Shown here: one piece after another, positions 7,280-22,433 of the stretch
How the letters are laid out: every line of letters begins with the position of its first letter
Numbering within the stretch: position 1 is the first letter of the stretch
Assembly (NCBI GenBank): GCA_019057385.1
Contig: JAHQJS010000005.1
Location: 320,799 to 384,798, forward strand
Source: Candidatus Borrarchaeum weybense
GTDB lineage: Archaea > Asgardarchaeota > Sifarchaeia > Borrarchaeales > Borrarchaeaceae
DNA length: 64,000 bases
Direction of reading: 5' to 3'
Made by a program: the position numbers and the translations under genes
Notes under the pieces: generated by a model
What the model saw: only the letters and a program-made list of their open reading frames with translations
Database searches by the model: none
Told to the model about the DNA's origin: nothing

Positions 7280-8245
7280 TCAACCGAACATCTCTTGTAG
7301 CCAGCGAATGTACATTCTAATCCCGTCTTCTAATTTCACTTCTGATTTCCAGCCTAATGTTTCTAGTTTCGTGATGTCCAATAGCATCTTATGTACATCT
7401 CCTTTCCATCCTTTTTGACCACCAGTATAGGAAAATTGCACATCGTCTAACTTAAGTTCGTTGGCAATAATATCTGCTATCTTTTTCACTTCAATTTGAT
7501 TACTGACACCTACATTAAATGCATCATAATTCATTTGACTGTTAAGAATATATTCAGTAATCATCATGCTCGCCGTAATGCAGTCTGAGATATACATATA
7601 GCTTTTATTCTGCTTGCCATCACCAAGAATCTCCAATTCGCTAGGATTTTTCTTTAGCTTCCAGAAAAAATCATGCATGACTCCATGTATCGATCTAGGT
7701 CCATATATATTAGCGTATCTAAGTGAAACACCTTTCATGTTATAACACTCGCTATAGGCTGAGATGTACATCTCGCATGTTGCTTTTGATGCACCATATA
7801 CACTTATTGGCTTCATTATATGACTTTCCGGAGTTGGATAGACCTCAACGTCTCCGTAAATCGTCCCCCCAGATGATGCAAACACTATCAGTCCTACGTC
7901 ATTTAATCTCATTGCTTCAAGAAGGTTCATTGTCCCAATGACATTTATCGAAAAATCTATGTAAGGCTCGTTTACGCTCAATTTGACATCAGGATTTGCT
8001 GCAAAATGAAATACCGCATCTTTGTCAGCACAATTCTCCTGTAACACTTTTTTTCCTCGTATATCTCCTCTTACGAATTTAAAATCTTCGTTATTCATGT
8101 GTCCTTCAATATATTCCATGGTTGAGGCAGAAAGATCATCAACAACCGTAACTTCATTCTCTAATTCTATTAAACGGTCTACTAAATGACTTCCTATAAA
8201 TCCACAGCCGCCTGTTACTAATACTCTCTTATTTTTTAATAACAA
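7280..8245 (-). CDS. NAD-dependent epimerase/dehydratase (GalE-like)
   Basis: VTGGCGFIGSHL, YGASK and LRYANIYGPR. Confidence 0.9.
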   Translation of the reverse strand: MLLKNKRVLVTGGCGFIGSHLVDRLIELENEVTVVDDLSASTMEYIEGHMNNEDFKFVRGDIRGKKVLQENCADKDAVFHFAANPDVKLSVNEPYIDFSINVIGTMNLLEAMRLNDVGLIVFASSGGTIYGDVEVYPTPESHIMKPISVYGASKATCEMYISAYSECYNMKGVSLRYANIYGPRSIHGVMHDFFWKLKKNPSELEILGDGKQNKSYMYISDCITASMMITEYILNSQMNYDAFNVGVSNQIEVKKIADIIANELKLDDVQFSYTGGQKGWKGDVHKMLLDITKLETLGWKSEVKLEDGIRMYIRWLQEMFG

Positions 8246-8367
8246 AAGTATTTCACTTCTTAGGAGTCTATATTACCTTTGAGGGAAAATTCACATAAAA
8301 TTCTTTCGTAATCTGTAGCAACATTCTAAAGTTCGATTGGACTAATAGATTTCGTGCAAAAAGAGTA

Positions 8368-8460
8368 TGGCGCCGCCGGAAGGACTCGAACCTTCGACCA
8401 GCGGGTAACTGCCAAGGGTATGTTAACAGCCCGTCACTCTACCAACTGAGCTACGGCGGC
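8368..8460 (-). tRNA. tRNA-Asn(GTT) with a 17-nt canonical 37/38 intron
   Basis: Reverse complement GCCGCCG...ACGGG-CT-GTT-A[ACATACCCTTGGCAGTT]A-CCCGC...TTCGAGT...CGGCGGC-G-CCA. Confidence 0.92.
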
Positions 8461-8785
8461 ACTTTAACGACGACATTATGTTTTTTCAAGTATTTTATAA
8501 ATCTTCTCATTTTGAGCTAAGAACGCCTCATTTCCTTTCGTTTTTCTGTATATCTACACATCTTACTTCCCATTGCATAACAGATCTCAGTAAATACTCG
8601 CACTTCGGATAATAGGTGTTTTCTTCTGTACATCAGTACTTCTCTTTTTATACCGACTTTCTTATCGGCTTCAAAACATTTAACTCTTAAGCTGACGGGT
8701 ATTAATATTAGAGAACCAAATCTTCAAATCTGTTTTGCAAAGAGCCTCAGAATATTCAACCAGCAGCCTTTAAAGAGGGAATCCA

Positions 8786-9604
8786 ATGATTCAAAACGTA
8801 TGGATCGTAGAAAAAGATCGAGGACGACGTTTGTTTCATAAACGGTACGGCACTATTGATATAGATCCTGATCTCTTTTCTGCTTTCCTTTCTGGTCTTT
8901 ATGGTTTTGTAGAAGTGGAACTTGGCGAAGCAGGAATCGACAGTATATCGATGGGCGATTTGAAGTGGGTTTATATTTACTCTCGTAACCTTTTGTTTAT
9001 TATAGCCGGCGATAAAGAAGATTATGTCCCTCACTTAAAAGCCAAATTAAACGTTATCAAAAACGAGTTCTTCGTAAAATTTCCCATCTTTAATAAAGAT
9101 TGGCAGGAAGCCTTCAAGCATACGGCATTCAAAAGCCTTCAAGAACAGTTTTATCCTATAGTCGATGAATTAGTTGTCGATTGGATTCAGCTCGCAAAAG
9201 TCACAGATGCTGCAAATTATATGGATATATGTGAAGTATGTCAGCATTTTATAGCCATCATTCGTAAAATAATTGCATCATGTGGCGAAGAAAGAAAGAA
9301 AGCCCTCCTAGATATCCTGAAAATGCAAATTTTAGATCTTATAAAGGGAGACAATGAATTGTCGAAGATCATAACCGAAGATGGCTTTATTGACTTCTTG
9401 CGCGTCAATGTTTTTATGATGACAGAAGATGCCGGGGATATCCTAAAAAAAATTTTAATAAGATGTTTTAACACCCTACGGAATGAATTAGGGTTTACGA
9501 ATTTCCAAGCTATGTTCCGCAAAAAACTTATTCCATATCTTAAAACAGATTGGAAGCGCATACGTTCACTTGATCTTGATATGCTCCTTATCTATCTCTT
9601 GTAA
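8786..9604 (+). CDS. Hypothetical protein with an N-terminal longin-like domain
   Basis: VWIV...G..LF...YG..DIDPDLFSAFLSGL..F......IDSI.MG.....Y....LLFII pattern resembles Asgard longin-like domains. Confidence 0.6.
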   Translation: MIQNVWIVEKDRGRRLFHKRYGTIDIDPDLFSAFLSGLYGFVEVELGEAGIDSISMGDLKWVYIYSRNLLFIIAGDKEDYVPHLKAKLNVIKNEFFVKFPIFNKDWQEAFKHTAFKSLQEQFYPIVDELVVDWIQLAKVTDAANYMDICEVCQHFIAIIRKIIASCGEERKKALLDILKMQILDLIKGDNELSKIITEDGFIDFLRVNVFMMTEDAGDILKKILIRCFNTLRNELGFTNFQAMFRKKLIPYLKTDWKRIRSLDLDMLLIYLL

Positions 9605-9780
9605 ACTCTACCTCTACCATCTTTCTCACAAAACGAGTTTTAAGCCTCTGTTCAACATCAAGTTTAGACGCCCTTTGTTGGAAGTTCCCTGGAATCTTTG
9701 GGGTGCAGTTTGCGTCTCATCATCGCCAAGAGAGAAAGGCATTTAAAACCCTATCACCGTTCTCACATCATTAATGGTTT

Positions 9781-9858
9781 GCTCCGGTGGTGTAGTCCGG
9801 CCAAGCATAAGGGGCTTTCGACCCCTTGACTCGGGTTCGAATCCCGGCCGGAGCACCA
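9781..9858 (+). tRNA. tRNA-Glu(TTC), intronless
   Basis: GCTCCGG acceptor, AGGGG-CT-TTC-GA-CCCCT, TTCGAAT and encoded CCA. Confidence 0.95.
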
Positions 9859-9883
9859 TATCACCCCTTAATATATTTGCTGT

Positions 9884-10060
9884 GCGGGGGTTGCCGAGCC
9901 AGGTCAAAGGCGATGGGCTTAGGATCACAACGTTTATGCCTGTTTTAAGACACCCATTGACGTAGGGAATCACTAGACCACCTAGGGTTCGCAGAAGTCT
10001 GCGTGGGTTCGAAAAATCGATGAGAGCACCTCAACTTCGAAATTCCCATCCCCCGCACCA
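9884..10060 (+). tRNA. tRNA-Leu(TAG) with three introns: 9924-9951 (37/38), 9966-9996 (variable arm), 10014-10043 (T loop 59/60)
   Basis: Removing the three inserts gives GCGGGGG...ATGGG-CT-TAG-GA-CCCAT-TGACGTAGGTCT-GCGTGGGTTCGAATCCCAT-CCCCCGC-A-CCA. Confidence 0.9.
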
Positions 10061-10165
10061 CTCTTGGCGTTAGTTATTCCAAAAAGTTTTTATCCAAAAA
10101 ACTTTTACCTTCACTACGAACGTAGAAAATTTCACACTCTATTGTAGATGGCTGGGAGATAGTAT

Positions 10166-10270
10166 GGCCGGGGTGAATGATTCGAGTTTCGAACTCTTTC
10201 ATCCCCCTGGGTAGTGGTATCCTAAGGGATTGTGGCTCCCTCGATCCGGGTTCGATTCCCGGTCCCGGCC
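10166..10270 (+). tRNA. tRNA-His(GTG) with encoded G-1 and a 33-nt intron at 9/10 (10176-10208)
   Basis: Strict BHB (GGGG/CCCC helix, bulges TG|A and CT|G, inner ATGA/TCAT); AGGGA-TT-GTG-GC-TCCCT anticodon arm. Confidence 0.9.
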
Positions 10271-10313
10271 CTCATTTACAGCATTGCATCGGCTGTCTCA
10301 TCGTTCTATCTGT

Positions 10314-10446
10314 GGGCCCGTAGCTCAGTTGGAAGTATTCCGGTGCACTTACGCATCCATTTCAAAAGCGCCTGGTTTGCAGCCAGGAGGCCGCGGGAAG
10401 TTTTCAGACTCCTGGAAACTCGCGATTTCAAATCCCGCCGGGTCCA
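10314..10446 (+). tRNA. tRNA-Ala(TGC) with two introns: 10336-10366 (D arm) and 10398-10426 (53/54)
   Basis: BHB helices TGGA/TTCA and CGCG/CGCG; the spliced product is a standard GGGCCCG...TGC...CGGGTCC-A cloverleaf. Confidence 0.9.
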
Positions 10447-10464
10447 TTCTGTTCTGTGTGGTGA

Positions 10465-10854
10465 ATAGCCACCGGGCCCTCCCACTACTTCTTTCATCAG
10501 TATTCCGAAGCTACAAAAATCGCAAAAGAACCCATTAAGATCGGGAGAGGGCATTCATGGGTCGCCGATATCGGGCAAAGAAGAGTCCTCTTAAATAGCC
10601 AAGGACATTTCCTCATACGGGGAATTGATTATCAGGAATTCGTCAGGATTGGATCTGATATTGACCTCATTTATACGTCACAAGACGTTCAACACGCTTT
10701 GGAATTGATACAAGCATATCCCATCTCATATATTTACGTTGGACCTGATGAACTGCAACAATATGGCGATGGCGTGGACAAATTCGAAAACCAACACTAT
10801 TTCGAACGCGTCTATTTCAATGACGTGGTGAAAATTTACCGATTGAAATCGTAA
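10465..10854 (+). pseudogene. Fragment resembling the C-terminus of DUF2298/YYY-type membrane proteins
   Basis: Open frame ...PISYIYVGPDELQQYGDGVDKF...FERVYFNDVVKIYRL* with no canonical start near its 5' end and no membrane part. Confidence 0.45.
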
Positions 10855-11745
10855 CCGCTTTCAATAAAACAAGGTGTTAACTCTCTCATTACCAATTGTT
10901 GACATAAAATTGCTTGTTTTTCTCGTCATTTATAGATGATCTTGCTACATTCATGTTGTTCTCGAAATCGTCTTACACAGACATCGTTTCTAATGCTAGC
11001 TACGGTATCTTTTTTGGTAAATCACGCGCGTAATTTCAAAAAAAAACAGTTGATTATAGCTCTATTGACATCTATTTATCATCGTTCGCAAAAATAAACA
11101 TCTGCGCTCCTTATTACAGTGACCTGACAACACTTTTTTACAGGATATGAGCGCTCTTGCCTTGAAACCTTCATTGCGCGACGGTAAAAAAGATACATAT
11201 AAAAGTGCTAAATGCGTAATATTTATATTGCTTCGCTGTATCACATAATTCCCCTCTATCTGAAATATCAATTTCGGATTTACTTAACTATGAGGGGACT
11301 TTTACCAATTGGATGCAACATACAGACCATAGTGCGTCTGTAGGTGAAGTAATTGGTTGTGAGTTCAACGATGAGCTTAAGGGACTGCGGATCTCAAGTC
11401 TCCTAATGACAAAGACTTGCCGATAGAATTTGGTAGTCTTTGTGAAGGCGGATACTGTGGTTCGCAGCGCGGGTTCGCGCACCAGCACCCCCGTCCACTG
11501 CCTTATGAACTCTGGCAGTAGCTGCGGCGCCTCAACGGACTCGGGCTGAACCTTGAGTGATTAGATCCAACTTCCACAAACTTATAGTTATTACTTTTAC
11601 GTATATCAAAGTAATTACCGCGATATACTTGCCTTCATCCCTCTTGTGGAGGAAGAGGGAACTGCTTTTCATGAGAATGTGGTCGTAGAAGGACTTAGTG
11701 GTTATGGTGAACACATTATCATAACTCGATTGAGTCTCGTTAAAT

Positions 11746-11764
11746 GAGCAGGCTCGCTTGTGGC
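11746..11764 (+). other. 16S processing stem, 5' strand (pairs with ~14459-14478)
   Basis: GAGCAGGCTCGCTTGTGGC is complementary, with bulges, to GCCAAGCTTGAGTCTGCTC after the 16S 3' end. Confidence 0.75.
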
Positions 11765-12035
11765 TCCGATACCGGTTGATCCTGCCGGACCCGACCGCTA
11801 TTGGGATGGGATTAAGCCATGCAAGTTGTGCGCTCCTAGTTATGAAGGAGAGCGGCAAAAAGCTCTGTAACGTGTAGTTAACCTCTCCTCAGGACGGGCA
11901 TACCCTCGGGAAACTGAGGTCAATTCCCGATAGTTGATTAGGCCTGGAATGGTTTTTCTTCCAAAGGTATCTTCTCATGCGAGGATACTACCTGAGGATG
12001 GGACTGCATCTGATTAGGTAGATGGTGGGGTAACG

Positions 12036-12074
12036 TGACCTTTAGTACACTCTTACACACTATCGGTCTTATAC
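12036..12074 (+). other. 16S intron 1 (39 nt, ~E. coli 265/266)
   Basis: BHB GTAA/TTAT, bulges CG|T and AC|G, inner GACC/GGTC; removal restores GGGGTAACGGCCCACC. Confidence 0.9.
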
Positions 12075-12158
12075 GCCCACCATGCCGATAATCAGTACGG
12101 GCTGTGAGAGCAGTAGCCCGGAGATGGAGACTGAGACAACGCTCCAGGGCCTACGGGC

Positions 12159-12195
<37 letters not shown>

Positions 12196-12280
12196 TGACG
12201 GGGCCATCCCAAGTGCCATCCGATAAGGGTGGCTTTTTCTCAGTGTAAAAAGCTGGGCGAATAAGGGGAGGGCAAGGCTG

Positions 12281-12406
12281 ACTGGATTGAGGCAAATCAC
12301 TAACACTATATTCTCGATGAACTATACTTCCCTAAAACGCGGCGCTTATAGTTCATCAAAAACTCTTATGCTTATCAAACTTACAAAACGCCTCATCCAG
12401 GCCTAT
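12281..12406 (+). other. 16S intron 2 (126 nt, ~514/515)
   Basis: BHB AGGC/GCCT, inner CTGGA/TCCAG; restores GGCAAGGCTGGTGCCAGCC. Confidence 0.92.
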
Positions 12407-12614
12407 GTGCCAGCCGCCGCGGTAAAACCAGCTCCTCGAGTAGTCGGGAGTATTACTGGGCCTAAAGCGTCCGTAGCCGGCTTTGTAAGTTCCTGGTCAA
12501 ACCCAGCGGCTTAACCGTTGGCTTGCTGGGGATACTGCAAAGCTTGGGAATCAGAGAGGCCAAGGGTACTAACAGGGTAGGGGTGAAATCCTGTAATCCT
12601 GTTGGGACCACCGG

Positions 12615-12645
12615 ACAGCAGAGAGACACTCTCCTGCTGGGTGAG
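12615..12645 (+). other. 16S intron 3 (31 nt, ~722/723)
   Basis: BHB CACC/GGTG, inner CAGCAG/CTGCTG; restores GACCACCGGTGGCGAAGG. Confidence 0.92.
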
Positions 12646-12716
12646 TGGCGAAGGCGCTTGGCTGGAAGATGTCCGACGGTGAGGGACGAAAGCCAGGGGA
12701 GCGAACCGGATTAGAT

Positions 12717-12747
12717 ACTTGGTGCTAATTATTGTATCATGCTAAAA
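12717..12747 (+). other. 16S intron 4 (31 nt, ~793/794)
   Basis: BHB TTAG/CTAA; restores GGATTAGATACCCGGGTAGTCC. Confidence 0.9.
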
Positions 12748-12872
12748 ACCCGGGTAGTCCTGGCTGTAAACGATGCGAGCTAGGTGTTTGCGTGGCTACG
12801 GGCTATGCAAGTGCCGTAGAGAAGTCGTTAAGCTCGCCGCCTGGGGAGTACGGCCGCAAGGCTGAAACTTAA

Positions 12873-12934
<62 letters not shown>

Positions 12935-13040
12935 AAGCCTGCGGTTTAATTGGACTCAACGCCGGGAAGCTTACCGGGGGCGACAGCTGGATGAAAGCCA
13001 GGCTGATGACCTTGCTGGACTAGCTGAGAGGAGGTGCATG

Positions 13041-13919
13041 AGGTAGTCAGGTCGTTAGCAAAACTTTTCGTCGCTTTCCTTTTCCTCTCAATAACAAAAG
13101 TCTAGATTCTTCCTGATGTCCTTTTTAATTAAAAGGGATAAGTCAGGTTGAATTCAAATGACTATTGGCGACAAAGGAAAGTTTGTTTTACTTAAAACGA
13201 AAAGTCTCATCAATCGCATACGTCAACAGCATAATGAAACAGTTCGTGGTATTTACGAGCATGTCGCAGATCTTGTTAAATGGAATACATTTCGAGACTG
13301 GGCTTATAGAGGCTGGTCACGAATGCCTTTAGAAGTATTTAGGCGACTAAAAAGTAAATACAAACTCAAAGAATCACCAAAAACGGTTACAGAAAAACAA
13401 TGGTATACACTAACTCGAACGAGAGCCGCTGAAATAATGCATAAATGCCACCCTCATAAAGAGTGGCTATCAGAAGCCGCAAAAAAAGGCGGCGAGGCTG
13501 TAAAAGAAAAATATGGTGTTAAATATCTAACAAACCTTTCTGCAAAGGCGATTCACTCGTCATCTAGTTATAGGTATGAAGACGATGATGGAAACAAATA
13601 TCGCAGCCGCTTAGAATTATCCATCGCTAAACTACTCCGAACGCATAATTTGAAGTTTATATATGAACCAGAGATTGAGGGATATGTTCCAGATTTCAAG
13701 ATTAATAATCCCCTCATCGAAGTGTGCGGTTATTTCCGTGATAAAGATTATCTTACTCGACTTAAAGTCAAACTAACTGATTTAGTCAATAAAGGCTGGC
13801 AAATAATTCTAATATGCGAGCCTAGCAAAAAAGCAGTTCTCACTGAAGCAGTTAAAGGTATATCCATAAATGCGATTAAGACAACAGATGAGTTTCGACG
13901 ATTTCTGACTACCGGCAAA
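13041..13919 (+). mobile_element. 16S intron 6 (879 nt, ~1057/1058) carrying a nuclease ORF
   Basis: Inner stem GGTAGTCAG/CTGACTACC with BHB-like bulges; restores GGTGCATGGCCGTCGCCAG. Confidence 0.92.
13158..13919 (+). CDS. Intron-encoded PD-(D/E)xK-like endonuclease (linear reading runs to 13955; circular form ends ...TTGKR*)
   Basis: YRS.LE..IAKLL....KF.YEP.....PDF.....LIEV.G nuclease core; N-terminal HTH-like segment and KGG motif. Confidence 0.75.
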
Positions 13920-14233
13920 GCCGTCGCCAGTTCGTGCCGTGAGGTGTCCTGTTAAGTCAGGCAACGAACGAGACCCCTGCGCCTAGTTGCCAGCGGATCT
14001 CTGCGGAGATGCCGGGCACACTATGCGGACCGCAGCCGATAAGGCTGAGGAAGGAGGGGGCCACGGCAGGTCAGTATGCCCCGAATCCCCCGGGCTACAC
14101 GCGGGCTGCAATGACGGGTACAATAGGTTTCGACTCCGAGAGGAGGAGGCAATCCTCAAAACCCGTCGCAGTTGGGATCGAGCGCTGCAACTCGCGCTCG
14201 TGAACATGGAATCCCTAGTAATCGCGTGTCATC

Positions 14234-14284
<51 letters not shown>

Positions 14285-14318
14285 TCCGAGTGAGCTTTAG
14301 GCGAGGCGCGTTCCGTAG

Positions 14319-14351
14319 GCAGTATAGGACAACTGTCACATACTGACGGAA
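14319..14351 (+). other. 16S intron 7 (33 nt, tip of helix 44)
   Basis: BHB CCGT/ACGG, bulges AG|G and AA|G, inner CAGTA/TACTG; the host region is variable, so less certain. Confidence 0.75.
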
Positions 14352-14380
14352 GATCGTGTCGAACCTGGGGTTCGCAAGGA

Positions 14381-14435
<55 letters not shown>

Positions 14436-15257
14436 CGTAATTAATTTATCCTTTAAGGGCCAAGCTTGAGTCTGCTCATGCGAAAAGACTGCAATCGGGA
14501 ACAATATGATGTGAACCATAAATCACCAGGTTATACATGAAATGCCATATTTTTAGCCGCTTACATAGGTGCGAATGGAACCAGGGGCTCATTAGTGTCT
14601 GGATACATACGCCATCTGGTGGATGACTTGGTTTGGGCACTGAGGAAGGTCGTGGCAAGCTGCGATAAGCCTGGGGTAGGTGCATGCTGCCTTCGAACCC
14701 AGGATTGCCGAATAGGACTTCCAATTAAGGATTAATAACCCTTAATGATCCGTAAGGATCGGGAACCCCGTGAACGGAAACATCTTAGTAACGGGAGGAA
14801 AAGAAACCAATAGGGATTCCCTTAGTAAGGGCGACTGAACGGGGAAGAGAGCAAACTGAACCCCTTAAGGATGACTTAGGGGGGATGTGGTGTGGTAGGC
14901 CTGGTTTCGGCCTACTCAATGAAGTTGAAATGGTCTGGAACGTCCCGCCGTAGAGGGTGAAAGCCCCGTAAACGTAAATTGAGAGGTCTTATGACCAGTG
15001 TCCTTGAGTACTGTGGGCTGGATACCTCGCAGGAATCTGAGAGACACTCACTCTCAACTCTAAATATGTCCCAAATCCGATAGTGCACTAGTACCTTGAG
15101 GGAAAGTTGCAAAGTACCGCGAAAGCGGGGTTAAAAGAGCCTGAAACCAGATGGTAACAGACGTGCGCGGCCCGAAAGGGTAGAGTCTCTTTGAAGGAAC
15201 CCGGAGTAATCCGGCAGTACGAAGAGAGAGGACCAGGGTTGCGCAATCCGTCTTGAA

Positions 15258-15287
15258 ATCAGACGAGATATCCTCGTCTAACAAGAA
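15258..15287 (+). other. 23S intron A (30 nt)
   Basis: BHB CTTG/CAAG, inner AGACGAG/CTCGTCT; restores GTCTTGAAACACGGGCC. Confidence 0.9.
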
Positions 15288-15641
15288 ACACGGGCCGGGG
15301 AGTTTATGGTCGTGGCGAGTTTAAGTGGATCATCCACGTAGGCGAAGGGAAACCGACAGCACGCATCTAGGCGTACCAGCTCACCAACAGTTGGGCTGTG
15401 GTCTATACCGAACCTCATTTGTCCTAATTCTTTCAATGGCTTCGGCCAACGAGAGAGGCAGGGCGCCGAGTGGACGTATGGTCTTCATCTCGACTCAGTA
15501 GTGGGTATGGGCAACTAGTCAGGTGCGAGGTCTTAATCGGCCTGGAGTCACGATTGTAAGACCCGAAAGCGAGTGATCTAGCCCTGGGCAAGATGAAGCC
15601 AGGGGAAACTCTGGTGGAGGTCTGCAGGGGTGTTGACGTAC

Positions 15642-15676
15642 AAGGAAATGAGAGATCATACTCTCGTTCTGCGTAA
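15642..15676 (+). other. 23S intron B (35 nt, helix 35 region)
   Basis: BHB ACGT/GCGT; restores GTTGACGTACAATTCAC. Confidence 0.88.
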
Positions 15677-15716
15677 AATTCACTCCCATGACCTGGGGTT
15701 AGTGGCAAAAGACCAA

Positions 15717-16719
15717 TCGCATTAACAAATGAGCCAATAACTAGCGTTCTCTAATTCCATTAAAAGCAGCCTTTTAATACTAAATTTGATATTATCTGTG
15801 AATAGTTGAATTCGGAGAATCATTGATGACTCAAAGAAAAAAATGGACTGCATATCGCATTAACAAAGATTTTGTTCGCAACAACAAAAAACGAGAACTA
15901 GCAAAATTAGCAGCATTTTTACTTACAGACGGGGGTTTATCCAGAGATAAAAGAACATATGTCATTTATTTCACAAACAAGTCTGAAGTATTACACGAAG
16001 TGTTTGAATCTCTTATAAGAGATCTTGTCCCTCAAGCTAATATGCGAAGCTCAATGTACAAAGGTGTTAAAAGAACTTACTTTAACAGTCTAGAACTTGC
16101 TGAATTGCTTTTTGAACTATCAGATTCTTATCGAACGGCACCATGCGAATCGTATCCAGTTTGCGCTAAGATTCGCGATAAACCCGAAATGATTCCTTGT
16201 ATCAAGTGCAATCAAATACGTGGATATCCCAATGCTACGTATCCTGAGATCAGCGACTTGGAATTGCTGGAAGAAATCTTGCAAATAATTGCGGATACTG
16301 AAGGTGGACCCGTTCTTTTTATTCATAGATATCCTAAATATATCTCTATAAGAAGAAGAATTGAGATAGGATGTTCGCATCCGATTCTTAAGAAACAAAT
16401 TAAACAAATGCTGGAAAAATTAGCTATTCCTAGCAAAATCGCAAAGGATACAATTAGAATTGAAGGTAAAGGAATTAGGATCTTTCGTGACAAAATAGGC
16501 TTTCGAAAGAACGTCAAAATGAGTACTGGTAACTTCGAAGGCTATAATAAGAACAGTGTATTAGAAATTATGATTATCACTAACGAATTGATAACTAAGA
16601 AAAAGTTCTTTCCAAGTAAAGTTGATAACTTGAATGCAATGTTAATGAAGGCTGTAGAACTTTTTGATAATACTTTTTCGCGAGAACGCGTTGTTGAGTT
16701 TTTAGTTAATGGGGGTTAG
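15717..16719 (+). mobile_element. 23S intron C (1003 nt, ~789/790) encoding a LAGLIDADG homing endonuclease
   Basis: BHB GACC/GGTT, bulges AA|T and AG|A, inner CGCATTAAC/GTTAATGGG; the ORF stop TAG is the last 3 nt of the intron. Confidence 0.88.
15823..16719 (+). CDS. Two-motif LAGLIDADG homing endonuclease
   Basis: LAAFLLTDGGL...IYFTNKS..L...F and LQIIADTEGG; Cys cluster between the two domains. Confidence 0.85.
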   Translation: MMTQRKKWTAYRINKDFVRNNKKRELAKLAAFLLTDGGLSRDKRTYVIYFTNKSEVLHEVFESLIRDLVPQANMRSSMYKGVKRTYFNSLELAELLFELSDSYRTAPCESYPVCAKIRDKPEMIPCIKCNQIRGYPNATYPEISDLELLEEILQIIADTEGGPVLFIHRYPKYISIRRRIEIGCSHPILKKQIKQMLEKLAIPSKIAKDTIRIEGKGIRIFRDKIGFRKNVKMSTGNFEGYNKNSVLEIMIITNELITKKKFFPSKVDNLNAMLMKAVELFDNTFSRERVVEFLVNGG

Positions 16720-16750
16720 ATAAGGAAGGGTGTGTCCCTCCTTAGGTAAA
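16720..16750 (+). other. 23S intron D (31 nt), directly abutting intron C at the same exon site
   Basis: After C is removed: GACC/GGTA helix, bulges AA|A and AA|T, inner TAAGG/CCTTA; final product GACCAATCTAACTCGC. Confidence 0.8.
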
Positions 16751-17054
16751 TCTAACTCGCTTATAGCTGGTTCCCCCCGAAGTGCATCTCAGTGCAGTCT
16801 GATCCGAGGTAGCTGGTGGGGTAGAGCACTGATTGTGGAAAGGTGGAGGAGAAATCCTTGCCGCCGCTCTCAAACTCCGAATCTGCCAGCGCCGTAGACG
16901 GTTGGAAACGGGCGGCCGGGCGTAAGGTCCGGCGCCGAGAGAGGAACAACTCTGACTGCGGTTAAGGTCCCTAAGTGCTAGCTAAGTGTGATCATGAAGG
17001 CTGTGGGCAGTCTTAGACAGTGGGGAGGTAGGCTTAGAAGCAGCCATCCTCTAA

Positions 17055-17075
17055 ACTGCTAAAAAGCAGAGAGAA
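17055..17075 (+). other. 23S intron E (21 nt, GTPase-associated region ~1085)
   Basis: BHB CTCT/AGAG, inner CTGCT/AGCAG. Confidence 0.88.
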
Positions 17076-17675
17076 TGAACGCGTAACAGCGCACCCATTG
17101 AGACTGTCCGCGCCGAAAATGGACGGGGCTTAAGCTAGCCACCGATACCGCGGAGCTGACGAAAACTTAGCATGAATCGTCATCTCATTTTCGAATGATT
17201 TGATTTACTCATGTTAATTGAGTACTCAGTTGGTAGGGGGGCGAGCCGGTTGGGCGGAAGCTGGGCTGTGAAGTCCAGTGGACCGACCGGTTTCGCAGAT
17301 CCCGGTGGTAGTAACAGCGTAGTCGGGTGAAAATCCCGATCGCCGGAAGGGCAAGGGTTCCTCGGCAATGCGTCGTCAGCCGAGGGTTAGTCGGTCCTAA
17401 GTCTGGGCGTAAGTCGCGTAAGGCGAAAGGGTAAACGGTTTATATTCCGTTACTACGAGGATACACGCGGTAACGCAAGCCAAGATTCTGACGCTTTCGG
17501 ATAGGCCGATTAGAGCTATCGCTCTAATTAAATGTAGAAACCTCAGGAGTACCGTAATGGTGAGAATGAGGTGAATGCATGAATAGCTTTCCGTAATAGG
17601 TGAGTTCGGTCAACTCCAGGAGCCATTGAAAAAGGACTTGGAAGGATTCTTCGTATCCGTACCCAGAACTGACAC

Positions 17676-17726
17676 TTAGATCGTACAGGAACGTGACAAT
17701 CTAGTCATGCGGACGATTTAGTCAAA
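17676..17726 (+). other. 23S intron F (51 nt, ~1617/1618)
   Basis: BHB TGAC/GTCA, inner TAGATCGT/ACGATTTA; restores CTGACACAGGTG. Confidence 0.92.
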
Positions 17727-18384
17727 AGGTGCCCCTAGGTGAGCAGCCTAAGGCGTTTCGGGTGAACTCTGGGCTAGGGAAATCGGCAAATTGGCCCCGT
17801 ACCTTCGGAAGAAGGGGTGCCTACGGTCTTGGGTCGCAAACTTGGGACCGTAGGTCGCAGTGACCAGGAAGTGCTATCTGTTTAATAAAAACATAGCTAA
17901 CTGCTAGCGCGAAAGCGTGTGTACAGTTAGTGAGTCCTGGCCAGTGGCGGTAAGTTAAACCTGAGTTCAATCGGGCGAAGCTCCGCTAAACGCCGGGAGT
18001 AACTATAACTCTCTTAAGGTAGCCAAATGCCTTGCCGGATAAGTACCGGCGTGCATGAAGGGAGCAATGAGCGCTTTACTGTCCCAGCCTGGAACCCGGT
18101 GAACCCACTACCTGGCGAACAGTCCAGGGAGTCCTTGCGGGAAGAGAAGACCCCGTGGAGCTTTACTGCAGCCTGTGCCTGTGCTACGATCGTTGATGCA
18201 GAGCGTAGTCGGGAGCCGTTAATCCCAGCCTCTTCGGGGGTTGGAGTAGGCAACCTTGGAACACCGACCTTCTTTGATTGTATCGCTAACCGGAACGAAC
18301 GTTCTGGAACAAGTGCAGGTGGGCAGTTTCGCTGGGGCGGCAGACCCTTGAAAATGTATCAAGGGTGCCCAAAGGTCAGCTCAG

Positions 18385-18416
18385 AATGCAATTACGTAAG
18401 TGAGTTGCATGAGTAA
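18385..18416 (+). other. 23S intron G (32 nt)
   Basis: BHB GCTC/GAGT, inner ATGCAATT/AGTTGCAT. Confidence 0.9.
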
Positions 18417-18427
18417 GTGGGTCAGAA

Positions 18428-18470
18428 TCAACGGATGAGATTCTGGCTATGACCTTATCAGTTGCTGAAT
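18428..18470 (+). other. 23S intron H (43 nt)
   Basis: BHB TCAG/CTGA, inner CAAC/GTTG; restores GGTGGGTCAGAAATCCACC. Confidence 0.9.
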
Positions 18471-18488
18471 ATCCACCGTAGAGCGTAA

Positions 18489-18519
18489 AGGTGAAGGTGA
18501 CCACCACCTTGCCATGTAG
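18489..18519 (+). other. 23S intron I (31 nt)
   Basis: BHB GCGT/ATGT, inner AAGGTG/CACCTT; restores GAGCGTAAAGGTAAAAGC. Confidence 0.88.
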
Positions 18520-18642
18520 AGGTAAAAGCTGGCTTGACTGTATTCTGACCAGTAAAGAATGCAGGAACGAAAGTTGGGCTTAGCGATCCTCAATACCTTA
18601 TCAGTGGGGGTTTGAGGTGACAGAAAAGTTACCCCGGGGATA

Positions 18643-18756
18643 AATGCGTCAGTTTTGTGAATATAGAAAGTGTGTAGACAAAGCTTAGTAAAGTTGTATG
18701 GGTAATTTAGCTTTGACGATTGTACAACTTTATGAGCGTCTGCGGCGCATTCCCAA
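18643..18756 (+). other. 23S intron J (114 nt, A2450/A2451, peptidyl-transferase centre)
   Basis: BHB GGGA/TCCC, inner ATGCGTC/GGCGCAT; restores GGGGATAACAG. Confidence 0.92.
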
Positions 18757-18872
18757 ACAGAGTCGTCGCGGGCAAGAGCCCATATCGACCCCGCGGCTTG
18801 CTACCTCGATGTCGGCTCTTCCTATCCTCGATGTGCAGCAGCGTCGAAGGGTGGGGTTGTTCGCCCATTAAA

Positions 18873-18904
18873 AAGGAGGCGAAAAATACCTCTCTCCTTA
18901 ATAG
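18873..18904 (+). other. 23S intron K (32 nt, ~2566)
   Basis: BHB ATTA/TAAT, inner AGGAG/CTCCT. Confidence 0.9.
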
Positions 18905-19059
<155 letters not shown>

Positions 19060-19502
19060 ACAGGTTGGATTCTATCTGCAAGGACTGCCGGTGGTCTGAG
19101 GGTAGGGTGTTCTTAGTACGAGAGGAACGGAACGTCGGAGCCTCTAGTGTACCAGTTGTCCGAAAGGGCAGAGCTGGGCAGCCACGCTCTAACCGATAAG
19201 AGCTGAAAGCATCTAAGCTCGAAGCGGGTCCCGAAAAGAGACCACCAATCACCAACAGAGGAGTTAGGGTGACCGTCCGTAACTGTTGGGGACGAGGACT
19301 CCAGGAAAACACTGGTTTGATAGAGCTGAGGTGTAAGTGTCGAGGGTACAGAGATGGTACTCTTAGTATTGTACACTCGCCTAAATCCCTCCAACCTCTT
19401 GGTCATGTACATAACCGTCTCTTCGGAGATAGTTGTGTCGTGATTAATGTTGTTGGGCCGAGGCACTCAGCCTGCAGCCACTAAACGTCCGAGTGTTCAG
19501 AC

Positions 19503-19524
19503 AGAACCCCGGTCCATGCAAAAC
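19503..19524 (+). repeat. 22-bp direct repeat, copy 1 (23S 3' processing-stem strand)
   Basis: AGAACCCCGGTCCATGCAAAAC, identical at 21656-21677. Confidence 0.9.
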
Positions 19525-19588
19525 TTATGTAGCGTAATGGCGGAAGTGTGGTGTTTCATGTTATGTATGAGTCCTTCTACGATACGAC

Positions 19589-19613
19589 AGGGAGTTTACT
19601 CCCTATTTTTTTT
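19589..19613 (+). terminator. Probable rRNA operon terminator
   Basis: AGGGAGT/ACTCCCT hairpin followed by T8. Confidence 0.55.
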
Positions 19614-19758
19614 GGGTGTATCGTATGACGATGTCATAAAAATTACTATAAAAACATATATTCCTAAGTTTATCAGCATAATTGATCCAAACTTGGATCT
19701 GTTATCCGTCACAAAAGCCTTTTCTATCTTCTCTCCCCATCCGACATTATCATCTTTA

Positions 19759-20631
19759 CTAAGATAGCATCTTAATCCGATTTAGATAAGAATTATAATC
19801 TATGTCATCCATTCGAAAAAGTTCCCATAGTATATCATTGGCGACTTGTTTACATTCCTCTGCTTCATCTGAAGTAGGTCTATACTCAGAATGTATAATT
19901 CGATTACGAATCATTCTGAGGTTATCATATCTTTTGAACTCCTCTGTTGGGATAATTCCTTCATTTTTTAAATATCGCATTTTTTTATGAACAGTCCATT
20001 CTCTATTGAGTTTCTCTATTAAGTCCTGAAATACGCCTTTTTTAATAAAATATTCTTCTAATTTTATTGAAAAGAAAATCTCAAGCGTTATCCAGCCAAG
20101 CAAGAAACAATTAGTATATTTCTGTTTACCCCATTCGGAATAGCACTCATAGAACGTGAATATTGGAATTTTAAATTTAGAATGAAAGATTCTTTCTGCA
20201 AAATCAAGTATTACTTTCAATTCATCTATTGTAAGAATTTCTTTATAACCTTCTCTCATATCTGGTGAGACATGTAGCCATCCGCGATCTATAAATGGAG
20301 TTACTTCGAGATTCTTCAGTTTTTTTGTTATTGGGTCGAAATTTACTTCTGCAAGCTCTTTTGGATATGTATTTCTGACTCTATACTTAAGCAAAGTTGT
20401 CGATAGAAAAATTGAGTTTAGAACTTGAGCAGAATAATCCCTATCATCTTTATCTGTACTTAGAAAGCCACTTTGATGAATGAAAATCTTGTCGTTGTTA
20501 AAGAGAAACTCGTAAAAAGTTTTTCCAACAAGTAAAGTGTTTCTTACGTCATATATGTCTATTTCTTTTTCAAAGAAAAGTGGAGGAAAAAAATACGTGC
20601 CAAAACCCTTTATAGACTCTGCCATAAGCAA
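19759..20631 (-). CDS. Hypothetical protein with a C-terminal HEPN-like domain
   Basis: Helical C-terminus with W..LE and RNRIIH (RxxxxH) motif. Confidence 0.6.
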   Translation of the reverse strand: MLMAESIKGFGTYFFPPLFFEKEIDIYDVRNTLLVGKTFYEFLFNNDKIFIHQSGFLSTDKDDRDYSAQVLNSIFLSTTLLKYRVRNTYPKELAEVNFDPITKKLKNLEVTPFIDRGWLHVSPDMREGYKEILTIDELKVILDFAERIFHSKFKIPIFTFYECYSEWGKQKYTNCFLLGWITLEIFFSIKLEEYFIKKGVFQDLIEKLNREWTVHKKMRYLKNEGIIPTEEFKRYDNLRMIRNRIIHSEYRPTSDEAEECKQVANDILWELFRMDDIDYNSYLNRIKMLS

Positions 20632-20789
20632 TCAACTATTTCTGATTCTGATAGCTATTCTTAAGATATTATTGATTATCTTTTTTTGAACATTAACTTT
20701 TTGTGATCCTTATATACTCGTTTTAATCATTATTACTGCCTAAGTTCACCAAGAAACAAAAATATTACAATTTATCGCAGGAGAATTAT

Positions 20790-21380
20790 ATGGACGTTAC
20801 TGAAACCATTTCTGCAGAGTTAGCATATTTGGCGGGCGCTGCTGAAGATGCCTACCTAGGAACAAATAGAGAGAAAGGGTACGAATTTGACATGGAATCA
20901 AAGTCTAAACAATGGCTCGAATGTGCTATAGCCCCAAGACTTATAAGATTAATAAAAAAACCGGTGAGAGTTCGAAAAAGGACTACAAGACCGTATTATC
21001 GCCTTAGAATATGGAATAAAGCATTGGTCACAACTCTAGCATCCATTAGAGAAATGCCTTTACAAGTTCTAAATTGGTCCGAAGAGTTTCAACTATTATG
21101 GGTACGCGGATTCATAGACGCAGAAGGCTCTGTAACACAATCAGGAGATAATCAACCAATGCTATCCGTTTACAACAAAAATCTCCAAAAACTACAAATC
21201 ATTGAAAAAATACTATCCCCTTACAAAATCAAAGCCCGCTACTATAAGCCACCTAAAAGGGATGTATGGCAACAGTATTTTACAGGAAGAAGCAATCTAA
21301 GTAAACTTTCTGAAATGGTAAAAATAGAACACCCTGAAAAAAGTAATAACTTACGATTATATCTCAAACAACCGCTTTAA
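20790..21380 (+). CDS. Free-standing two-motif LAGLIDADG endonuclease
   Basis: ELAYLAGAAEDA and WVRGFIDAEGSV...YNKN motifs; not flanked by exon or extein sequence. Confidence 0.85.
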   Translation: MDVTETISAELAYLAGAAEDAYLGTNREKGYEFDMESKSKQWLECAIAPRLIRLIKKPVRVRKRTTRPYYRLRIWNKALVTTLASIREMPLQVLNWSEEFQLLWVRGFIDAEGSVTQSGDNQPMLSVYNKNLQKLQIIEKILSPYKIKARYYKPPKRDVWQQYFTGRSNLSKLSEMVKIEHPEKSNNLRLYLKQPL

Positions 21381-21655
21381 TTCTTTAAAAAAAGTCCATA
21401 TCAGTCACTATCCTCTTCAGCAGCCTTTTTCGCCATTGTTTTTTCGTCTTTAAAACCATTCATCAAGTTTTTTTTTTGATCCTTTTTTACTTGGGAAAAT
21501 CTCACAAGTTCCTGTACATTCATTTCTAACAACGAGCCTATTTCCTTCATAGTGCAAAGAATGTGGAGACGTCACATTCTGGGAGATAGGGGGTTTCGCT
21601 AACTAAATCTGCTTTCTGTATTCAAATTTCTTAAAATGACTTGAAGGAAATATAA

Positions 21656-21677
21656 AGAACCCCGGTCCATGCAAAAC
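21656..21677 (+). repeat. 22-bp direct repeat, copy 2 (duplicated 23S trailer)
   Basis: Identical to 19503-19524; continues with related sequence ending TATGTATGA. Confidence 0.9.
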
Positions 21678-21734
21678 CTGTATAGCAAACGCGTAAGACC
21701 TATGTATGACCTTACTTCTCAAATTTTTGAAAAA

Positions 21735-22433
21735 CTAATATTTGACTTTCTGCAACAGATGCTCGTTTTTCGGATGAACAAACACGTATACTCCTGAGTG
21801 TAGAACAGGATTGCCCGTATCGAAATCACGATCGCTGCGACATAACGCATATTTTGTGACAGCTTCTGTCATGAAATGCGGATAATCAAAGAGTTCTGGT
21901 GTAGCAGTTGCCCCATAGAGTTTATGTTCGCCAATGTACACCAGATAACGGACGGATGAACATTCCAATACATTTTGCAATGGAAAATGCTGTGGAGCCC
22001 AACAGGAAAGCACCACATCAGAATGGCATTTTTTAATCGAATTGAAAACATCCATTTTCTCAACTGGGAAGTGTTTGCCCTGAGTTAACATTTCCCATGA
22101 GTAATCATCGGTGGCTGTTATCGAAAGATAATCCGAAAGATAGTATGAAAGTAATCCATCGCCTGCGTGTATTTCCAGCAGATTCTTGGGATTGAGAATT
22201 GCGAGTAGGTTGATCAGGTCTGCGATGAACTCCTGTGAATAGATCTGATATATTCCATGTTCTGCACAATACCACGGTCTGCCAAGTTCAGTTTGCTCTA
22301 CATACTTGATGAAATTCACGACTGAAGAATATGAACGAAGTGGATAGTTAATATTCGTCTGTAGGTATCTCATTAACTTACGTAATTGACTTTTTGTACC
22401 CAATCTTGAACTTATGCGATCATATGAGCTCAT
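21735..22433 (-). CDS. Putative SAM-dependent methyltransferase-like protein
   Basis: LEIHAGDGLL motif I-like, ATDD and VLSCW. Confidence 0.5.
   Translation of the reverse strand: MSSYDRISSRLGTKSQLRKLMRYLQTNINYPLRSYSSVVNFIKYVEQTELGRPWYCAEHGIYQIYSQEFIADLINLLAILNPKNLLEIHAGDGLLSYYLSDYLSITATDDYSWEMLTQGKHFPVEKMDVFNSIKKCHSDVVLSCWAPQHFPLQNVLECSSVRYLVYIGEHKLYGATATPELFDYPHFMTEAVTKYALCRSDRDFDTGNPVLHSGVYVFVHPKNEHLLQKVKY

Follow-up and report, generated by a model that had tools for sequence, protein, structure and literature searches.

Homing endonucleases encoded in archaeal ribosomal RNA (rRNA) genes are represented by I-DmoI, I-PorI, I-ApeI and I-PogI, LAGLIDADG enzymes whose open reading frames (ORFs) are nested in bulge–helix–bulge (BHB) introns at conserved rRNA sites. 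Introns of the I-DmoI group are excised by the tRNA-splicing machinery and then circularised, and circularisation of introns by the archaeal ligase is established biology. The C-terminus of I-DmoI is reported to depend on whether the linear or the circular intron serves as template, and a paper of 1994 names 'two forms of I-DmoI' in its title. Reviews and a catalogue of Thermoproteales introns give archaeal rRNA-intron endonucleases as LAGLIDADG only, and the reviews place PD-(D/E)xK (I-Ssp6803I) and EDxHD (I-Bth0305I) enzymes in bacterial or phage group I introns. Here we describe an ORF-bearing intron in the 16S rRNA gene of the Asgard archaeon Candidatus Borrarchaeum weybense, located in a 64,000-nucleotide (nt) stretch of contig JAHQJS010000005.1 (the window, to which all unprefixed positions refer), together with its product, P0001. 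It is probably a mobile-type BHB intron in 16S helix 34 carrying a homing-endonuclease-like gene of a class undescribed for such introns, a reading that we hold with moderate confidence.

The window contains an archaeal rRNA operon. Its 16S gene (11769-14434) spans 2666 nt against the 1478 positions of the archaeal small-subunit model, and its 23S gene (14595-19398) spans 4804 nt against 2987 model positions, so both are heavily interrupted. Covariance-model alignment and direct reading place the end of the 5′ exon, GGTGCATG, at 13040 and the start of the 3′ exon, GCCGTCGCCAG, at 13920. Joined, the two exons give the conserved helix-34 consensus GGUGCAUGGCCG (RF01959), and the same sequence occurs in a related complete genome whose 16S gene has no intron. 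Moving the splice register by one base in either direction loses this consensus and fails to reproduce the circle joint observed in relatives (below). By our own count we take the insertion point to lie approximately after E. coli G1057. The site is absent from the 13 16S loci of Thermoproteales, Desulfurococcales and Aigarchaeota catalogued in 2015. The elements of the intron are as follows.

13041-13919, plus strand: 879-nt BHB intron interrupting helix 34 of the 16S between RF01959 positions 996 and 997, placed by the exon consensus and the circle joint
13035-13038, plus strand: 5′ exon strand (UGCA) of the central 4-base-pair (bp) BHB helix, facing GGCA at 13914-13917 with three Watson–Crick pairs and one A·G mismatch
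13039-13041, plus strand: 5′ bulge, U G/A, with cleavage after 13040, two bases into the bulge, from the exon consensus and the circle joint
13914-13920, plus strand: GGCA strand of the central helix (13914-13917) followed by the 3′ bulge, A A/G, with cleavage after 13919
13042-13050, plus strand: 5′ strand of the 9-bp intron helix, GGTAGTCAG, complementary to 13905-13913 and holding the TAG at 13044-13046
13905-13913, plus strand: 3′ strand of the 9-bp intron helix, CTGACTACC, which is also coding (L-T-T)
13048-13100, plus strand: conserved intron leader, with blocks invariant at the nucleotide level in all three clades (alignment A5)

In the minimum-free-energy fold an exon–exon stem (13020-13035 with 13920-13934) leads into the central helix. 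The intron helix comprises 9 perfect bp (13042-13050 with 13905-13913), about 15 bp in total when extended, and covaries across clades (GGTAGTCAG/CTGACTACC, GGATGTCAG/CTGACATCC and GGCCTTCAG/CTGTAGGTC). The intron therefore shows the BHB arrangement of two opposite 3-nt bulges, a 4-bp helix and symmetric cuts in a relaxed form. In the relative from Atabeyarchaeia the partner strand reads UGCG, giving four of four central pairs and a predicted fold with a 3-nt bulge. A group I intron was considered and rejected: the BHB geometry is present, and all Rfam intron families fall below threshold in window positions 8000-22000 and in the scanned loci (L002-L005, L007, L010, L011, L018-L021, L026, L028 and L029).

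The host genome encodes RtcB and two EndA-family proteins. Genes for the EndA-family catalytic domain lie at G000 C4:663774-664019 and C5:195898-196158, and the two RtcB loci at G000 C5:145777-147087 and C1:13917-15008. This gene set appears consistent with a splicing endonuclease of broad specificity in an organism with 19 rRNA introns.

The first approximately 60 nt of the intron are nearly invariant in the three clades (CAGGTCGT..AAAACT.TTCG..GCTT.C...CCTCTC). Because synonymous sites in the ORF are saturated between clades (dS, the synonymous divergence, above 2), this invariance suggests that the leader is a functional RNA element, which might serve splicing, translation control or protein binding.

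The coding sequence and its possible ends are the following.

13158-13919, plus strand: ORF P0001, 762 nt, open throughout its 254 codons and ending in the AAA at 13917-13919
13953-13955, plus strand: TAA in the 3′ exon, terminating the ORF on the unspliced precursor (265 amino acids (aa))

The final base of the ORF is the final base of the intron (13919), and where the protein ends depends on the RNA that is read. The linear intron provides no stop codon at all. On the precursor the frame continues for 11 exon codons to the TAA, giving 265 aa. On the circle it reads GGC AAA/AGG TAG, closing with the TAG at 13044-13046 after 255 aa (...TTGKR-stop). Circle and precursor thus specify two forms of the protein with different C-termini. 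The ORF is under purifying selection, with a ratio of non-synonymous to synonymous substitution (dN/dS) of 0.06-0.25 overall and 0.15-0.25 in close pairs, and some RNA form must therefore be translated. Endless translation round the 879-nt circle (3 × 293, with the ORF in frame with the first intron base) is ruled out because the leader contains TAG, TAA and TGA in that frame and the circle of relatives is 880 nt.

We looked for the circle by placing the contigs, not the raw reads, of four sequencing runs on window positions 12900-14060. Two metatranscriptome runs from different studies each contain a 910-nt contig with a back-joint from 13919 to 13041, that is, going back 879 nt, each in a permutation of its own. 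The DNA run from the source sample, which is the likely source of the window, instead contains a 1041-nt contig collinear over both splice sites, with the back-joint absent. Two loci from Sequence Read Archive (SRA) runs (L001 and L031) and one from a Joint Genome Institute (JGI) assembly (L030) are circularly permuted 880-nt units bearing the 13919-to-13041 type of joint; they have terminal repeats of 30 nt (L001), 30 nt (L031) and 123 nt (L030) and are about 94% identical in nucleotide sequence to the window intron. A 97% identical DNA-type contig (L032) holds the same intron in line within its 16S gene, with exons on both sides.

Proteins clustered at 90% identity divide in the same way. 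Six members, including the representative P0002, are 255 aa long and lie on contigs of 910, 959 or 1003 nt, and the three of these that were sequenced (L001, L030 and L031) are all permuted 880-nt units with the joint. Three members of 265 aa sit on longer, linear contigs of 1.2-443 kb. A diverged clade (L003 and L004; JGI sample 3300019250) shows the same type of joint, GGCAAA/AGGCCT, although we count these circle-like contigs as supporting only, as the library may not be RNA. Because of the junction contigs, the permuted units, the split in the protein cluster and the joint in the diverged clade, the existence of the excised intron as circular RNA joined from 13919 to 13041 is well supported, in relatives rather than in this strain.

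Other contigs bear on the same RNAs. Positions 1-1087 of L003 run from 5′ exon to intron, across the circle joint and into the intron start of a second strain variant; this is an assembly chimera of precursor and circle, with both species in one data set. The RNA run X15 covers most of the intron of a relative and yielded no junction contig, in assembled contigs that drop rare forms. The exon–exon joint (13040 to 13920) was discarded as evidence for splicing, as it occurs in all runs, DNA included, and most likely comes from intron-less archaea.

A preliminary description of this DNA, made from the sequence alone, had proposed a 16S intron with its 3′ splice site at 13919, and the 16S model, the relaxed BHB motif and the circle joints in RNA all fix the intron at 13041-13919. 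It had also described an ORF that lacks a stop within the intron, ends in AAA at 13919 and closes as GKR-stop on the circle, which direct reading bears out; the stop stays in frame when the splice register is checked, a one-base shift breaking both the exon consensus and the observed joint. The predicted junction GGCAAA/AGGTAG was recovered in RNA contigs of relatives and was absent from the source DNA run, but has not come from this exact strain.

The protein is described by the following features.

13185-13391, plus strand: predicted XRE-type helix-turn-helix (HTH), residues 10-78, with a predicted local distance difference test (pLDDT) score of about 90-96 in the model and support from VIA-align
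13572-13919, plus strand: PD-(D/E)xK nuclease domain, residues 139-254, from profile, Foldseek and VIA-align
13614-13616 (E153), 13692-13694 (D179), 13719-13721 (E188), 13725-13727 (C190) and 13770-13772 (K205), plus strand: nuclease residues, from the family alignment

P0001 by itself has no significant match in Pfam, in NCBIfam or among PDB sequences, and no Pfam LAGLIDADG match at E up to 10. An exhaustive search yielded 33 relatives, the distant ones aligning at residues ~100-228 only. A profile built on these distant homologues reaches T7 endonuclease I (2pfj) with E 1.9e-9 and Bax1 with E 3e-5, and aligns the motifs RSxLE, YE, PDF and xExxG with T7 endonuclease I; in P0001 these read RS..LE (149-154), YEP (169-171), PDF (178-180) and IEVCG (187-191). 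Nine of 30 distant homologues match the Pfam family Phage_endo_I (PF05367) at E 0.01 or better, and others match DUF559, DUF790 or DUF7487. Measured against the curated PF05367 cut-off of 29.1 bits, P0025 lies above (38.5) and P0012 below (18.2), with no match for P0001. The homologue P0020, from a 23S intron, matches DUF790 below threshold.

The AlphaFold model of P0001 (pLDDT 86.6) is predicted to contain the core alpha-beta-beta-beta-alpha-beta fold of the PD-(D/E)xK superfamily. The best structural match of the nuclease domain is the catalytic domain of I-Bth0305I (3r3p; Foldseek E 1.6e-4), with a VIA-align Z of 9.4 and a root-mean-square deviation of 2.9 Å over 88 residues at 17-19% identity. 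The matches ranked after it are mostly restriction enzymes, Vsr, TnsA, Can2 and Bax1 nuclease domains.

Among 40 sequences R149, E153, D179, E188 and K205 are each at least 90% conserved. E153, D179 and E188 align with E20, D55 and E65, the acidic residues that bind metal in T7 endonuclease I, and C190 aligns with T7 K67, so that the canonical lysine of the (D/E)xK motif is missing from its usual place. The K67 column is variable over the whole family, with lysine in P0025 only. The most economical reading of the alignment is that K205, in the following helix, would be a relocated catalytic lysine.

The N-terminus looks like an XRE-type HTH, a putative DNA-binding module. VIA-align matches this region to 3op9 (Z 7.0), CapH-N (6.9) and Aca10 (6.7); Foldseek on the N-terminal model returned no row below E 0.1, its weak rows for HipB, C-protein and SinR being consistent with that assignment. 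The modelled architecture is an N-terminal HTH, a helical linker and a C-terminal PD-(D/E)xK domain of the T7-endonuclease-I/Vsr-like branch. The linker (window 13440-13560, residues ~95-135) carries a KGGxAxxxKYG motif, which is repeated several times in P0012 (residues 33-87, giving a sub-threshold LEA_5 match) and has nine matches in P0011, a protein of 1335 aa; the repeats may form a module that binds nucleic acid.

Of 400 genomes from the phylum, 3 have a close homologue of P0001, spread over three families, and the carriers include metagenome-assembled genomes (MAGs) labelled Candidatus Hermodarchaeota (JAEOSX010000174.1) and Atabeyarchaeia-1 (CP147779.1). A complete genome from the same family as the Atabeyarchaeia carrier, in a sister genus, has an intron-less 16S gene of 1498 nt with an identical, intact target. 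The locus thus has the marks of a homing endonuclease: the gene lies inside an intron at a conserved rRNA site, and its spread is sporadic, with an intron-less allele in a relative. More distant homologues lie in other rRNA introns. P0012 is encoded in a 16S intron (L005) about 20 nt downstream of the window site, with a BHB motif that is clean by eye, and two others are encoded in 23S introns (L026 and L028/L029) adjoining LAGLIDADG-bearing introns. Taken together, the homologues are spread over four or more rRNA sites, as members of a mobile nuclease family would be, and homing activity of the intron-encoded protein is probable on this comparative evidence.

These results also bear on what the preliminary description had said of the protein. 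The motifs it listed (RS.LE, YEP, PDF and IEV.G) are present and LAGLIDADG is absent, and its assignment to PD-(D/E)xK-like nucleases is upheld by the profile match to T7 endonuclease I and the Foldseek match to 3r3p. Its remark that cysteine occupies the position of the catalytic lysine holds for the alignment of C190 with T7 K67, but reading this as a replaced lysine needs qualifying, given the variable column and the conserved K205. The proposal of a different endonuclease class in BHB rRNA introns is strengthened by the distant homologues in other 16S and 23S introns, the patchy gene and the intact intron-less site.

Several of these loci have features of their own. Positions 2840-3725 of L005 are the 16S gene of another, AT-rich archaeon, in which a mini-intron of ~50 nt splits GGTGGT/GCATGG just upstream of the window's intron site. 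The P0012 intron in the same gene (~790 nt, BHB) follows ...ACCGTG, and its ORF enters the exon for four codons and stops at the same conserved exon UAA. In L027 (2501-3760) a single predicted ORF of 419 aa combines the nuclease domain with a QueD/PTPS domain. It lies in a phage-like 7-deazaguanine cluster that also encodes a radical-SAM protein and GTP cyclohydrolase I, and the nuclease might be of the homing type, either free-standing or inserted. Atabeyarchaeia-1 (G004) has two weak matches to the nuclease domain, at C1:992669-992893 and 1242655-1242972 (L020 and L021; E 2e-5 and 5e-4), which lie apart from all rRNA hits, in open frames 381 and 361 aa long, and may be free-standing paralogues.

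The 16S genes of relatives hold other ORF-bearing introns upstream (L002 2881-3570 and 3832-4467; L032 619-1245), whose ORFs include LAGLIDADG_3 members and, in the Hermodarchaeota MAG, one of 211 aa without a family. Published work on Atabeyarchaeia and Freyarchaeia reports introns in 92-95% of their tRNA genes; rRNA introns and homing endonucleases go unmentioned in that paper and in a 2026 preprint on Asgard tRNA introns.

From established archaeal splicing, we would expect EndA to cut two bases into each bulge of the motif in the 16S precursor, and RtcB to join the exons and also the intron ends, giving the circle. The encoded protein would cut the intron-less 16S site GGTGCATG/GCCGTCG and so promote or maintain the intron, and in the window clade the circle would be the template from which a protein with a proper end is made. 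The case for the circle as template arises because the linear intron lacks a stop and the precursor adds 11 exon-encoded residues; on the sequences, the chance that it is the translated template in the window clade is about even. A more ambitious form of the proposal combines a new homing-endonuclease lineage (an HTH plus a T7-endonuclease-I-like domain with a relocated lysine) in archaeal 16S and 23S BHB introns, in Asgard archaea and in other archaea that are AT-rich, with the circular intron as messenger RNA (mRNA) in the window clade, where it is the sole stop-bearing form. This combination we put forward as tentative, and somewhat doubtful as a whole.

A number of findings weigh against the reading of the locus as a mobile intron whose nuclease frame is closed on the circle. 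The central BHB helix of the window has its A·G mismatch, and the minimum-free-energy fold shows an internal loop there. The circle joint is known from the ~94% identical relatives and not from RNA of this exact organism. Patchiness of the gene stems in part from MAGs without assembled rRNA operons (three of five genomes gave no 16S), and the position of T7 K67 is held by cysteine, serine or alanine in this clade. The junction stop is confined to one clade, and by chance a random joint would be followed by a stop within two codons in about 9% of cases (2 × 3/64). Introns of the Atabeyarchaeia type terminate the ORF at an internal TAG 12 nt before the splice site, and those of the Hermodarchaeota type lack a TAG in both strands of the intron helix and lack a junction stop.

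The stop of the Atabeyarchaeia type sits in the 3′ strand of the intron helix and that of the window clade in the 5′ strand of the same helix, and in the Hermodarchaeota type reading on would lengthen the protein by 27-37 residues on the circle or by 11 in the exon. The junction stop is by itself statistically unremarkable, because of the chance expectation, and is lifted above it because the predicted joint is found as RNA in relatives. Across the clades compared here the stop is real and convenient, but not a conserved trait.

These same clades bear on the alternative that best survives, in which unspliced pre-rRNA is read while it is being transcribed and yields the nuclease as the 265-aa form, the circle being a by-product of RtcB and the junction stop incidental. 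An in-frame exon stop lies 11 codons downstream in both the window clade and the Hermodarchaeota clade; as the latter lacks a tidy circle stop, one rule for both clades favours the precursor. The distant homologue in the L005 16S intron likewise runs four codons into the exon, and the chance expectation of a junction stop, given above, also speaks for this alternative. However, the tail added by the precursor is 11 residues dictated by rRNA sequence, and assemblies of several RNA data sets contain the intron as a circular species of its own. Dalgaard et al. (1993) reportedly found I-DmoI to be made from the excised intron, linear or circular, rather than from the precursor. We consider translation from pre-rRNA unlikely.

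Purifying selection on the ORF would be compatible as well with a role that benefits the host. The product might no longer be a DNA endonuclease and act instead as a DNA- or RNA-binding helper (in splicing or ribosome assembly) or as a regulator, with the intron inherited vertically rather than spread by homing. The presence of C190 (or S or A) in place of T7 K67 would suit such a role; 2pfj, the K67A junction-binding mutant of T7 endonuclease I, shows VETAG at that position in the alignment. The deep protein divergence between clades (60-67% identity) is consistent with long residence. Against this, the three acidic residues and R149 are conserved at the level given above even in distant homologues from different introns, and so is K205; the spread over at least four rRNA sites is that of a mobile nuclease, and an allele without the intron but with the identical target exists within the same family. 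Loss of nuclease function is accordingly improbable, and we retain the homing-endonuclease-like reading.

That the junction contigs are artefacts of assembly or reverse transcription, or derive from tandem or circular DNA copies, is highly improbable: the evidence does consist of contigs rather than raw reads, RNA libraries can hold DNA and the library type of the L003/L004 sample is uncertain, but the joint coincides exactly with the two BHB cut positions that the exons predict, it is found again in separate runs and studies, in contigs of different permutation, and it occurs in two diverged clades. DNA contigs of the same lineage (X1 and L032) are instead collinear and flanked by exon at each end.

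If protein-spliced BHB introns do hold a second class of nuclease, unrelated to the first, selfish nucleases would have colonised them more than once, as they have group I introns. This class is met repeatedly, at several sites in 16S and 23S genes, and it is present in intron-rich Asgard lineages; it would add a compact, modular, rRNA-targeting nuclease scaffold. If the circle is indeed the template, the window clade would provide a natural case of a protein whose complete frame exists only on circular RNA in an archaeon. The circle-closed frame offers a concrete case for circular-RNA translation in archaea, as the two templates leave different C-terminal peptides: ...FLTTGKR from the circle, and AVASSCR and EVSC from the precursor tail.

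Set beside described systems, the protein resembles several enzymes and coincides with none. By sequence profile T7 endonuclease I (PF05367) is the closest to the P0001 family, but it is a Holliday-junction resolvase of ~149 aa that lacks an HTH and has Lys67 where P0001 has cysteine. I-Bth0305I, an EDxHD enzyme from a phage group I intron in recA, shares the modular plan, in which a Vsr-like PD-(D/E)xK catalytic domain is linked to a region that binds DNA; it differs in its motif (EDxHD, against E...PD...E(x)C plus K205 here) and in residing in a self-splicing group I intron, against a BHB intron in an archaeal rRNA gene. The archaeal nuclease Bax1/DUF790, whose nuclease domain is matched by the family profile as given above, works in repair as a free-standing partner of the XPB helicase; its gene is not part of an intron, and the protein carries other domains. 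I-Ssp6803I, a PD-(D/E)xK enzyme from a cyanobacterial tRNA group I intron, sets a precedent for intron homing endonucleases with a restriction-enzyme fold; it is bacterial, belongs to a group I intron, is compact and multimeric, and is not among the listed structural matches of P0001.

The I-DmoI group differs from the present locus in having the LAGLIDADG fold and motif, against an HTH and PD-(D/E)xK domain here, and in its insertion site and host, which here are ~E. coli 1057 and an Asgard-type archaeon. The element is of the same type as that of I-DmoI, whereas the nuclease class, insertion site and host lineage differ, and in one clade circularisation sets the C-terminus.

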